A stretch of 64,000 nucleotides of DNA from Clostridia bacterium. GTDB taxonomy: Bacteria; Bacillota; Clostridia; Oscillospirales; CAG-272. Made by a program: the position numbers and the translations under genes. The stretch's first letter is position 1. The number at the start of each line of letters is the position of its first letter. The stretch is from assembly GCA_017462485.1 (NCBI GenBank), contig JAFTRA010000019.1:28941-92940 (forward strand). The letters run 5' to 3'. Under the pieces are notes generated by a model, which saw only the letters and a program-made list of their open reading frames with translations, was not told where the DNA came from and did not search any database. Of this stretch, positions 17,914 to 20,877 are shown piece after piece.

Positions 17914-19293
17914 TTATTCGTGCACCTGATAATAATAATCAAGGGCGTTTTGAATCTTGATAAGGGCGGGAAGAAGCTCGGCCCTCGTATAATTACGATT
18001 CACCTTAAATTCTTGACCGTTATTATAGTTATGATAGTAGGGAGCCGCATCCTCGAAGGCCTCACGAAGCAATTCAACCTCAGGAGACGTCGAGTTGTTG
18101 TTTGCCTTTATTATATCATAAGCCTTTTTGAAGATTCTCGAGTTATCTATCTTATTGAATATTTCCTGGTCCTTCGAGGACATTATTTCTTCAATAGTAG
18201 AATGTTTATCGTATTCGGTTCCTTGTTCATAACCAACCTTATAGCTTATTTGCGTTCCCACGGTGTAGGTATTTGCGGTTGCTTCCCAGTCATCTAAGTT
18301 TATCGTGCCGTCTGCATTAAGCGTAGCTGTTCCTTCGTATAGTTCACCTATCTGATACCATTCTCCCGTCTCATCGGATTGAGAATAAGATATAGCATAA
18401 ACCGCTGCGCTTTGACCCGCCGCGTTATTAACCGTGATATAAACCGTGTATTCGCAGCCGGTAGGACCATTCGAAACGTCATAATTATCGCCTGTATTGC
18501 TTTTTCCGTCAACGTTGCTTCTTTCTACCATTACTGTAACGGGAACGTCAACACCGTCAACGTTGATGGTCATATTTTCGCCAAAGAGCGCATCAAACAC
18601 AGTCGAGCCTTGTCCAACGTTTCCAAGCGCAGTTGTTTTATTCTCGGAATACGCATCATCAAATGCGTCGGATAGAATTTCATAACTGTCCCGGTTGTTA
18701 AGAATTGCAAGGAATCCGTCATAAACGGAATCCATTCTTATATCAAATTTAAACTCAACGAGAGTTGATATATCCCAAAGCGCATTCGAGCCAAAAGAAT
18801 AAGTTGCGTAAAAGTCTCTGTACGTGTGCGGCGGAACGTAGTCGTTTGTATTAAAGGTTTTTGATGTATCAGCCAGCTTATCCTTAGTTGTTACAGTCAA
18901 TCCGTTTGACGTACCAAAAAGACTGTTTGTTCCGTAGCCGTTATCATAAAACATTCCGGTATACCACTGTGAAACGTCCGTATTGTTGTAAACGGTTATT
19001 TTATACGTCACCGAGGTCATTGATTGGTCGTTTCTTAAGCTCATACTCAACTTTGCCGGAAGGGAAAAGCTATACGTATGATTACTTGCGTGTTCTGTGG
19101 TTTCTGCAAGTTCTACGTTAGTTATATACACCGCTTTGGGCGGCTCATAGGAAAATTCGTTGATTCCTATAGAAAATGCTGAAGAAACGGGATTTGGAGG
19201 ATTTGCAAAATTCCACGAAGCATATATTCCTGTCGAAGAAACAACGAACGCAATAAATAAAAAGCATATCGCGTTTCTCAGAGCTCTTGTCAT
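17914..19293 (-). CDS. secreted protein of unknown family with SipW-cognate-like signal peptide
   Basis: 459 aa. Leader MTRALRNAICFLFIAFVVSSTGIYA|SWNF. ATG overlaps the sipW stop (ATGA). The mature part is N/T/Y/D-rich with a helical C-terminus; no motif recognised. Confidence 0.8.
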   Translation of the reverse strand: MTRALRNAICFLFIAFVVSSTGIYASWNFANPPNPVSSAFSIGINEFSYEPPKAVYITNVELAETTEHASNHTYSFSLPAKLSMSLRNDQSMTSVTYKITVYNNTDVSQWYTGMFYDNGYGTNSLFGTSNGLTVTTKDKLADTSKTFNTNDYVPPHTYRDFYATYSFGSNALWDISTLVEFKFDIRMDSVYDGFLAILNNRDSYEILSDAFDDAYSENKTTALGNVGQGSTVFDALFGENMTINVDGVDVPVTVMVERSNVDGKSNTGDNYDVSNGPTGCEYTVYITVNNAAGQSAAVYAISYSQSDETGEWYQIGELYEGTATLNADGTINLDDWEATANTYTVGTQISYKVGYEQGTEYDKHSTIEEIMSSKDQEIFNKIDNSRIFKKAYDIIKANNNSTSPEVELLREAFEDAAPYYHNYNNGQEFKVNRNYTRAELLPALIKIQNALDYYYQVHE

Positions 19294-20120
19294 TTCTTCC
19301 CTCCCTTCTTATGTTCCCATTCGTAAAGAGGAAGTAAAAAGCCCATAGCTTCAAGACGTATCCGTTCTGCTTCGTACATCTTGTTTTCTATGATGAAAGA
19401 TGATATCATTGCCACTATAACGAGAATAATGCACATCCAGCCGGCAGGGGATTGCATAAAGTAAATAAAGCTGCCTATAAAGGGTATTTTCTCGTTACGG
19501 TATATAGCTTCTATCTGTGAATACGTTACCTTTTTGCTATCCGGGGAAGAAATGGAATCTCCCTGCAACGTAAAGAGCCTTTTACCCGGATGGTACATAT
19601 TAGGTTCTTCAATTGCGACTATTCTGTGGATAACCTTTTCTCCGTCAATATCGTAAACAACAACGTCGTAAAGCTGAAGGTCAAACTCATCTGGCGCTTC
19701 ATATACAAAAACAAGATCAAACGTACTGAATTGATTGTCAAGATTGTTTTCAAAAAGATAATCGTTCAATTTGTTTTTGTTTTCCATAGAGCTGCTTTTA
19801 ACGATTCTCAGTGTCGGAATGTTTTCAAAATATGTATTTTCTGTAGCATTCAAAATTAAAGAGAATGTGAAAATAGTCAGCATTATGACGCAAACGATAA
19901 ATGAAAAGATAACGTCAAAAACCTTAACTGCTTTTTTTCTGCCTTTGTTATTCAGTTTTCTTTCAAGATATTCATATTTAATTCTCTTATCATCAAGTCC
20001 TGCCCTTACTACTTGCAAGGAAAGCTTGAAAATTTTGGATATCATGAAGGTGAAAACGCCTGTCAGCATGACGTACACTATGAGACATACCACAAATGCG
20101 TATATTTCAAAGCCTGACAT
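19290..20120 (-). CDS. sipW: signal peptidase I, SipW/ER (S26B) type, with an extra N-terminal TM segment
   Basis: Catalytic-region motifs IVKSSSM (Ser), VIHRIV (His) and LQGDS. Has N- and C-terminal TM segments. AAAGGAAG RBS. Confidence 0.85.
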   Translation of the reverse strand: MSGFEIYAFVVCLIVYVMLTGVFTFMISKIFKLSLQVVRAGLDDKRIKYEYLERKLNNKGRKKAVKVFDVIFSFIVCVIMLTIFTFSLILNATENTYFENIPTLRIVKSSSMENKNKLNDYLFENNLDNQFSTFDLVFVYEAPDEFDLQLYDVVVYDIDGEKVIHRIVAIEEPNMYHPGKRLFTLQGDSISSPDSKKVTYSQIEAIYRNEKIPFIGSFIYFMQSPAGWMCIILVIVAMISSFIIENKMYEAERIRLEAMGFLLPLYEWEHKKGGKK

Positions 20121-20143
20121 TTTTTACTTCCTTTTCATTAAAC

Positions 20144-20178
20144 GAATTTATCCCACGCGTAAAACATGGGATAAATTC
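20144..20178 (-). other. perfect 12-bp stem hairpin between the first cargo gene and sipW
   Basis: GAATTTATCCCA, 11-nt loop, TGGGATAAATTC. On the transcribed (minus) strand it is not followed by a U-run. Confidence 0.6.
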
Positions 20179-20192
20179 AATCGTTTTTTTAT

Positions 20193-20786
20193 TTATGATG
20201 CGGGGGTATCGGAATGCTTTCCGTCGCTTATGGATATAACTATCTGACCGTTTGTAAGAACAGCATCGTAAGCGTCGTATTCCGCCTTTGTATCAAGAGT
20301 AAACTCGGTAAGAGTTATATAATCCTTAAGAACTTCCGCGGTTATTTCATAGGTAAACACACCGTTTTCATCGGGTCCGCCCCAAGTAATATTATGAACT
20401 TCCGTGTCTATTGTAAGTATGTCTTCACCGTTGTATTTCCAATCCGTATTGCTTAAACTAAACTTAAAGGTGGAATTAGGAAGACCTTGAGTCTTGATGG
20501 TTTCATCTGCGTTAGCATTGGGAGTGAAGGTGATTTTAATGCTTCCCGAAATAAGCAACGAGGTTACGTGCGACGTATTAGGCTTAGGATCTACCTTGAG
20601 CGAAAGATTTGATAAATCAGCACCAAACGTACCGTAATTACCATCGAACGTCGCTTCTGTCATTGTAATTGCCTTTGCTCCGGTAATGTCAGCTACGTCA
20701 TCGTTCTTTATGTAAACCCAGCTTGCGTAAACGCCGCCAATGGTTACAATGAGAGCGAGTGCTATGAGTAAACTCAACTTTTTCAT
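20193..20786 (-). CDS. small secreted protein with TasA/CalY-like (SipW-cognate) signal peptide
   Basis: 197 aa. MKKLSLLIALALIVTIGGVYA|SWVYIKNDD resembles the B. subtilis TasA leader junction GGGTWA|AFNDIKSKD as I recall it. The mature part is not assignable by eye. Confidence 0.8.
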   Translation of the reverse strand: MKKLSLLIALALIVTIGGVYASWVYIKNDDVADITGAKAITMTEATFDGNYGTFGADLSNLSLKVDPKPNTSHVTSLLISGSIKITFTPNANADETIKTQGLPNSTFKFSLSNTDWKYNGEDILTIDTEVHNITWGGPDENGVFTYEITAEVLKDYITLTEFTLDTKAEYDAYDAVLTNGQIVISISDGKHSDTPAS

Positions 20787-20815
20787 TCTTTTTTCTCCAA
20801 AAAATTAAAAATTCA

Positions 20816-20836
20816 AAAGATGTTATAAACATCTTT
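20816..20836. promoter_or_regulatory. 9-3-9 perfect palindrome in the leader of the sipW operon (operator or RNA hairpin candidate)
   Basis: AAAGATGTT-ATA-AACATCTTT, located between the -10 element and the RBS of the 197-aa gene. Confidence 0.4.
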
Positions 20837-20844
20837 GTAAGTTT

Positions 20845-20873
20845 AATATACCACAAACTAAACAAAATGTCAA
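20845..20873 (-). promoter_or_regulatory. sigmaA-type promoter of the cargo-sipW-cargo operon
   Basis: Minus strand TTGACA, 17 nt ending in TGG, TATATT (plus-strand TGTCAA 20868-20873, AATATA 20845-20850). Confidence 0.65.
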
Positions 20874-20877
20874 CATT

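Follow-up and report, generated by a model that had tools for sequence, protein, structure and literature searches.

We analysed a 64,000-nucleotide (nt) stretch of DNA from a Clostridia bacterium (Oscillospirales; CAG-272; assembly GCA_017462485.1, contig JAFTRA010000019.1, positions 28,941 to 92,940), which is called the window below, and focused on an operon on its minus strand in which the gene for a signal peptidase lies between the genes for two secreted proteins. A prediction made earlier from the letters alone (the original prediction) had described three tightly packed minus-strand genes for proteins of 197, 276 and 459 amino acids (aa), and open reading frames (ORFs) of these lengths are located at 20193-20786 (gene A), 19290-20120 (gene B) and 17914-19293 (gene C). 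Genes A and C are ORFs for secreted proteins, and gene B was assigned, from its ORF and motifs, to a divergent signal peptidase I (SPase I) of the S26B type, which is the type of the endoplasmic reticulum, of archaea and of SipW. The TGA stop codon of B overlaps the ATG of C (ATGA; …GAAATGACA…), as had been described, and a GGGAGG ribosome-binding site is located upstream, while the spacer between A and B is 72 nt long. The leader of A (20724..20786, minus strand, aa 1-21, MKKLSLLIALALIVTIGGVYA) has its predicted cleavage site after Ala21, and the leader of C (19219..19293, minus strand, aa 1-25, …FVVSSTGIYA) after Ala25. Both leaders are basic-hydrophobic, and they end in TIGGVYA↓SW in A and SSTGIYA↓SW in C.

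Judged from its sequence, B clearly belongs to the S26B signal peptidases, as a divergent subfamily. The motifs by which the original prediction had recognised this class (SSSM, VIHRIV and LQGD) are present, and 50 homologues all share S111, M112, H165, G187, D188 and D194. B has the Ser in an S-x-S-M-type box, a His as general base (HR[IV]V) and not the Lys of LepB, and an Asp in a GD(N/A)…D box. A profile of the B family (50 sequences) matches human SEC11A (E 5e-4) in an alignment that spans the His box and the GD…D box; H165 aligns with the His of 'VHRV' in SEC11A, and G187, D188 and D194 align with GDNNAVDD. In peptidases scoring above the TIGR02228 cut-off, the residue aligned with S111 lies in the SxSM(E/T) box; the alignment of S111 with 'SGSME' of SEC11A is weak. 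In addition, hhalign aligns the catalytic domain of B with the peptidases passing TIGR02228 (98% probability, E 1e-13). The scores of B against the curated models are 46 bits for the NCBIfam SipW model NF046067 (E 4e-12, cut-off 190), 35 bits for TIGR02228 (cut-off 51.85) and 10.5 bits for PF10502 (cut-off 22.9), and nearly all of its 161 homologues are annotated as 'hypothetical'. B has three hydrophobic segments (9-27, 71-89 and 226-244), and the loop at 31-66 contains 12 K/R residues, which places this loop in the cytoplasm; the extra N-terminal transmembrane (TM) segment and the basic loop of the original prediction are thus both found. B resembles SipW in its Ser-His type and its C-terminal TM segment. 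Unlike SipW, it has the extra N-terminal TM segment, a conserved cytoplasmic loop with a GL(E/D)D motif (G41 and D44 are invariant), and an insert of ~15 residues after the catalytic Ser. Some variants of B are longer; we considered that they might be fusions with DUF5305 and rejected this idea, because the extra length consists of variable cytoplasmic tails.

The likeness between A and C lies in the leader. The pattern G.[YF]A.W occurs in only two places in a six-frame translation of the 64-kb window, and these are the leaders of A and C, so that the shared G-x-YASW junction that had been proposed is unique in the window. It is also conserved in homologues. A profile search (E≤1e-3, 1.84 billion representatives) found 756 clusters of the A family at 50% identity, all of 180-240 aa; at 90% clustering there are 511 homologues of A and more than 378 of C. 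All 84 diverse representatives of the A family have A21 and W23, conservation of G17, G18 and Y20 is 90% or higher, and A25 of C is invariant in 115 homologues. No part of the A family is more conserved than the junction GGVYA↓(T/S)W.Y. The mean frequency of the majority residue is 0.83 at positions -6 to +4, 0.70 in the n/h region and 0.41 in the mature core, although selection bias from the profile search possibly contributes to the conservation of the leader. Ordinary signal peptides show the opposite pattern, in which the leader is less conserved than the mature core. Similarity between A and C is limited to the leader and the junction, since the hhalign value of 95% for the full-length proteins drops to 3% after trimming. 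The idea that A is a paralogue of the N-terminal domain of C was therefore rejected as unproven (3-15% with leader and junction trimmed). The A/C leaders are a new sequence class, and there is no curated model for the signal, for the enzyme subfamily or for the cargo.

We examined how A, B and C occur together in two sets of loci, namely 46 loci anchored on C in GTDB species genomes, all of them uncultured, and 47 metagenome loci anchored on B. The hosts of the C-anchored set include Candidatus (Ca.) Scatosoma, Christensenellaceae, Oscillospiraceae, Vescimonas and Faecousia, from the gut of sheep, goat and deer (roe deer). Of the B-anchored loci, 26 extend at least 650 nt upstream of B, and in all of them A is the gene immediately upstream. 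Where at least 1.5 kb is available downstream (19 loci), C comes after B in only 7. This indicates that A and B form the core pair and that C is one of several optional cargo proteins. The co-occurrence of the trio of the original prediction holds in part: A-B is constant, and C is facultative and also found with another peptidase system or alone. In six B-anchored loci (L060, L065, L078, L089, L090 and L091), ORFs of ~190-365 aa downstream of B carry a GG[VA][YF]A↓xW.Y junction on mature parts unrelated to A or C, and from this junction they appear to be further members of the cargo set. In the C-anchored set, about 11 of the 46 loci have A, a B-type peptidase and C among unrelated flanking genes (architecture 1). 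About 19 of the 46 have a short ~190-aa protein, a polytopic S26B peptidase, a DUF5305 protein and C (architecture 2; for example L011, 4446-9401, within L011-L049), and the remaining loci have C alone. The peptidase of architecture 2 has ~377 aa, ~8-9 hydrophobic segments and a TIGR02228 score of 78 bits, and its DUF5305 protein has 400-820 aa and scores 36.7 bits (cut-off 29). Neither the window nor any B-type locus contains DUF5305, which was seen only in architecture 2, a sister architecture that has the C family in common with them. We also asked whether A is a homologue of the short proteins of architecture 2, and rejected this, as the similarity is confined to the leader. It was also observed that in one locus (L008, 2924-5145) C comes directly after A, with B missing between the two.

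These data bear on another explanation of the operon, in which the adjacency is ordinary, namely that B is the general signal peptidase of the cell that happens to lie between two secreted proteins, and that the shared junction is a coincidence. The leaders satisfy the -3/-1 rule for ordinary SPase I as well, and the surroundings of the operon are housekeeping genes near oriC, as such an explanation would have it. It is contradicted by the recurrence of A-B in dozens of loci with unrelated neighbours, and it does not agree with the invariant A21 and W23 in the 84 diverse representatives, with the occurrence of the junction motif only twice in the window, or with the co-variation of leader class and peptidase class described below. 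We regard mere adjacency as extremely improbable.

Leader type follows peptidase type. In every architecture-1 locus, the short and the long cargo both have the junction G[VI][YWF]A↓xW.[YF] (type 1), and in every architecture-2 locus, both have G[YF]A↓[AST][LFIM][TS]..L.[IV].G (GYA↓ALTD.L.I.G; type 2). The junction type thus co-varies with the peptidase type across ~30 loci, which agrees with the original proposal of a dedicated peptidase with matched-leader cargo. In a neighbour-joining tree of the mature domains of C, the leader type changes at least ~4 times, and the distance between mature domains is 0.49 between leader types, compared with 0.47 and 0.44 within them. The repeated switches and the barely larger distance between types indicate that the leader has been exchanged to suit the resident peptidase. 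This co-variation, seen at the level of sequence, is the strongest available evidence for specific recognition of the leader by the peptidase. Solitary C genes with a type-1 leader (GVYA↓TW) and no peptidase within 8 kb were observed in L013, L023 and L034, and this implies that they are served in trans by a peptidase encoded elsewhere.

The co-variation also bears on whether the leaders are cleaved at all. They could be uncleaved signal anchors, in which case A and C would be membrane-anchored at their N-termini, the junction would be a motif of the membrane interface, and B would be inactive or act elsewhere. The entire leader of A including its h-region is unusually conserved, and the AF2 model of C has a continuous helix through the junction (H2-29), both of which are in line with an anchor. 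On the other hand, an invariant Ala at -1, a small or aliphatic residue at -3 and the preceding GG make up a canonical SPase I site; the catalytic residues of B are all invariant; and the junction type follows the peptidase type, as substrate recognition predicts. We consider uncleaved anchors very improbable. The pairing of a dedicated peptidase with a cognate leader is highly probable.

We favour, as the probable explanation, that the locus is a private sorting system of leader and peptidase, with A as the main cargo and C as a minor subunit of what is likely an extracellular polymer. B would be the membrane-bound S26B (Ser-His) signal peptidase, and its cognate leader would have a basic n-region, a hydrophobic h-region and the junction G-G-V-Y-A↓(T/S)-W-x-Y, carried by A and by variable further cargo, here C. 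In this scheme, Sec would export A and C, the leader would keep them in the membrane, and B would then cut after the invariant Ala and release them. One promoter would drive the operon, and through the conserved hairpin after A, described below, the product of A would far outnumber those of B and C. The analogy with tapA-sipW-tasA, sipW-bsaABC, archaeal Tafi and AbpX makes it most likely that A is the major subunit of an extracellular fibre or matrix, in which C would have a minor role as, for instance, a tip, an adhesin or an anchor. The conserved mature N-terminus might serve both recognition and assembly. Residues 22-37 of mature A are unstructured in the monomer model, which would suit a donor strand without being proof of one. 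Fibre or matrix assembly, the part of this explanation that depends on the analogy, is plausible, with the balance about even. More tentatively, the A family might be a large and new group of proteins that self-assemble into surface or matrix fibres in uncultured gut Clostridia and whose fold is unrelated to that of TasA. Together with the private peptidase it would form a modular 'address code', in which cargo families exchange leader classes to match the type of peptidase, as the C family does with its GVYA↓TW.Y and GYA↓ALTD.L.I.G leaders.

The expression signals fit a major role for A. The promoter of the original prediction, a sigma-70-type TTGACA-17-TATATT site with a TG extension, is present at 20845..20873 on the minus strand, in the 91-nt gap between the upstream 4'-phosphopantetheinyl transferase gene and A. 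It matches 11 of 12 consensus positions and is the top-scoring site within 17.6-21.7 kb. The region has 15 promoter-like sites, compared with 12.1±4.1 in shuffled sequences; the total is not above that of the shuffles, so the position directly upstream of A is the main argument for this site. An intercistronic hairpin lies between A and B (20144..20178, minus strand) and has a perfect 12-bp stem, GAATTTATCCCA/TGGGATAAATTC, followed by a T-rich tract; its folding gives a dG of -21.2 and a z of -5.7. Of 11 related loci, 10 have a similar hairpin in the A-B spacer; its CCCAT/ATGGG core is invariant, and the flanking pairs show compensatory change (G-C to A-U in 4 of 9 sequences). From its sequence, the hairpin is predicted to be a partial terminator or an mRNA stabiliser that raises A over B and C. 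The conserved hairpin after A, together with translational coupling of B and C, predicts an excess of A over B and C, as is known for the major subunits of fimbrial operons. The CCCAT…ATGGG core is also unchanged across L001, L006, L009, L010, L014, L018, L025, L027 and L046, whose proteins are only 25-50% identical. This conservation exceeds what a generic terminator requires, and the hairpin may be, as its sequence suggests, a recognition site for a protein or an RNase.

Several results weigh against the explanation that we favour. No match at E≤10 was obtained with TIGR04088 or TIGR04089 against A, C, their N-terminal 50-60 aa or the type-2 leaders, nor with TIGR04090 against the leaders, and the claim that the leaders belong to the SipW-cognate class of TIGR04088 fails on this point. 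B stays under every curated peptidase cut-off. Pfam and NCBIfam searches with A and C, including the 84 diverse A representatives, gave no relevant match at E≤1-10. Foldseek found no credible match in the PDB for A (best E 0.07, TM ≤0.22) or for C (best E 3e-3, TMq 0.11, generic Ig-like), and A and C show no sequence or structural similarity to TasA, BsaA, AbpA, TafE or any PDB entry. The confidence of the A model is only moderate (pLDDT 78). Furthermore, all members found are from uncultured Clostridia, and C is missing from most B loci and is sometimes solitary, which makes its role in a structure built of A uncertain.

The mature parts of A and C had been called unassignable, and the searches agree. 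Profile searches of the PDB with A, C, B and the short proteins of architecture 2 gave SEC11A, for B, as their sole match; no TasA-family entry is among the top 50 Foldseek matches of A and C in the PDB, so that the proposed test for a TasA-like fold came out negative; and Foldseek with C against BFVD gave no match. The proposed profile comparison of the cargo with Peptidase_M73/TasA (PF12389) and TapA also found no Pfam or NCBIfam match. TasA itself, used as a positive control, matched NF046066 (514 bits) and TIGR04088 (38 bits, cut-off 19), and also TIGR04090 and TIGR04089. This shows that the models are in the searched library and that A and C truly fail to match them. hhalign does superpose GGVYA↓TW on TasA GGGTWA↓AF, and the A profile (A7) aligns with TasA in the leader alone, with 10% probability. 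All named relatives of A and C are 'hypothetical' proteins of Clostridia metagenome-assembled genomes, and none has a Pfam domain. A is acidic, Thr-rich and Cys-free, with a net charge of -15 in its mature part, and its model has a leader helix, unstructured residues 20-37 and a beta-rich core with three helices (pLDDT 84-92). C is also acidic (mature net charge -32) and rich in N, T, S, Y and D. Its AF2 model (pLDDT 92) begins with a leader helix and a flexible linker, which are followed by a beta-sandwich (55-184) and an alpha/beta domain (187-459) with a helical bundle at the C-terminus (H367-458), in accordance with the N/T/Y/D-rich protein with a helical C-terminal module that had been described. 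The sequences of A and C contain no lipobox, twin-arginine (Tat) motif, LPXTG or wall-anchor signal. A thioester domain in C was also considered from the conserved GCEY/WYQ, and this idea was dropped because Foldseek found no thioester-domain (TED) fold.

The same searches supply the arguments for and against a dedicated sorting system whose cargo does not polymerise. In such a case, A and C would be soluble or surface-retained monomers (binding proteins, adhesins or enzymes for gut substrates), and the peptidase would serve only for release or timing. Neither A nor C gave a TasA-like or pilin-like fold in the Foldseek searches; the cargo after B varies in family and size, as a general sorting signal predicts; and the conserved loops of C, rich in D, N, Y and W, could bind sugar or Ca2+. 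However, B always has A, of ~195 aa and without any enzymatic signature, as its partner, and the conserved hairpin suggests that A is over-produced. The C family has no invariant catalytic-type residues, and DUF5305 and a polytopic SPase I, which characterise the sister architecture, are so far known from fibre loci only. Taken together, a non-polymer cargo is rather unlikely, and among the other explanations it is the one that deserves the most attention.

Our favoured explanation, a private sorting system for a probable polymer, was compared with known systems. In Bacillus subtilis tapA-sipW-tasA, a dedicated SPase I is tied to donor-strand fibres of the TasA superfamily (PMC9674648, PMC10151520). 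The operon of the window is like it in having cargo, S26B peptidase and cargo in a single operon, so that the gene order does mirror tapA-sipW-tasA as had been claimed, and in that both cargo proteins have a leader end of GG-x-aromatic-A followed by an aromatic residue. It also has the TasA-superfamily trait that the secreted subunit lies beside a dedicated S26B peptidase (A in 26 of 26 loci). It is unlike tapA-sipW-tasA in that the leaders fail TIGR04088 and that A and C have no sequence or fold similarity to TasA, camelysin or TapA. In summary of this comparison, the window locus works like a SipW-TasA module, yet it fails TIGR04088 and the sequence and fold tests for the TasA superfamily. 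In Clostridium perfringens, sipW-bsaA-bsaB-bsaC makes SipW-dependent BsaA polymers (10.1101/2024.11.04.621531; PMC7395162), and in the published model the leader retains the subunit in the membrane until assembly (10.1101/2024.11.04.621531). The likeness to this system is that both are clostridial and combine a dedicated SipW-type enzyme with two secreted proteins, a small one as the major matrix protein and a larger accessory one. The differences are that there is no TIGR04090 match, that the gene order is different and that C has no vWA domain. In addition, no Lys/Asn/Glu triad is conserved across the wider A family, and isopeptide locking is therefore unlikely to be general.

Haloarchaeal Tafi consists of the TafD peptidase and TafG (DUF5305) (PMC11821415, PMC12337348), and AbpX loci combine DUF5305 and an SPase I of ~10 TM segments with tip proteins and minor subunits (10.64898/2026.01.04.697558). 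These donor-strand pili have as their hallmarks DUF5305 and a dedicated SPase I (PMC11821415, PMC12337348, 10.64898/2026.01.04.697558). Relatives of C occupy such loci, together with a short ~190-aa protein, a polytopic S26B peptidase and DUF5305, and the cargo proteins there share one leader. By this analogy, architecture 2 resembles a locus of the AbpX/Tafi type in which C takes the position of a tip or minor protein. The window is unlike Tafi and AbpX in that it has no DUF5305 gene, that its peptidase has only three TM segments, that export is by Sec and not by Tat, and that A is unrelated to the short proteins. Architecture 1 is a leaner variant, with another small subunit family, a 3-TM peptidase and no DUF5305. 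The system is also like the pairs of the Haft type (exosortase/PEP-CTERM and SipW/TIGR04088), where one enzyme serves a short signal on unrelated proteins, some of them distant, as with the solitary type-1 C genes. It is unlike these pairs in that its signal, a new sequence class, is N-terminal. What is known already is the logic of a private S26B peptidase with a matched leader; what is new here is the A and C cargo, the B subfamily and the leader class, all of which lie outside the database models.

SipW-type peptidases and TasA-superfamily fibres are emerging as a matrix or pilus system common to bacteria and archaea, and the locus has the same private-S26B and matched-leader logic on cargo families absent from the databases. 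The leader motif and the peptidase subfamily provide an annotation rule that is usable at once on proteins that are mostly 'hypothetical' in public records. The presence of two leader classes on one cargo family (C) is a natural experiment in leader/peptidase specificity. Furthermore, the locus offers candidates for surface structures, which may influence how little-known gut anaerobes aggregate, adhere or form biofilms.

The operon has other sequence features in its flanks. In the 5' untranslated region of A, an inverted repeat (20808..20844, minus strand, 17-nt arms, 3-nt loop, 82% complementary) lies between the -10 box and the ribosome-binding site, and it may be a 5' stabilising stem-loop or an operator. 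Downstream of C, between convergent genes (the neighbour is a PspC-like gene), a hairpin with an A-run, a 23-nt stem and a T-run (17752..17814, minus strand, 87% complementary) is, from its sequence, likely a bidirectional intrinsic terminator that closes the operon. Between the stop codon of C and this terminator, the window at 17830-17905 has two imperfect direct copies of an AT-rich unit of ~35 nt (…ATCTAAAAA[G]NATTTTTAAGCGCT…), each with an AGCGCT palindrome. An Rfam scan of the window gave no match.

Directly upstream of the operon, 20878-21549 (minus strand) encodes an Sfp/HetI-like 4'-phosphopantetheinyl transferase (PF01648, 28 bits). It was considered as a member of the module and rejected, as it stands beside A-B in the same species only and not elsewhere. 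Further upstream, 24155-24727 (minus strand) encodes a 190-aa protein whose N-terminus looks like an XRE-type helix-turn-helix, followed by long low-complexity repeats rich in A/P/K/E (…APKAEPKVEEVK…). At 25435-34400 (minus strand) lie dnaA-dnaN-recF-like-gyrB-gyrA, assigned by order and size. There are clusters of DnaA-box-like sites at 32679-32830 and 34275-34381; near 34 kb the cumulative GC skew is at its minimum. Together, these indicate that the chromosomal origin is ~14 kb from the operon. On the other side, parA/parB are located at 14.3-16.6 kb in the window, and the GC content around them (12000-16000) is as low as 0.33-0.35, compared with 0.39-0.49 elsewhere.

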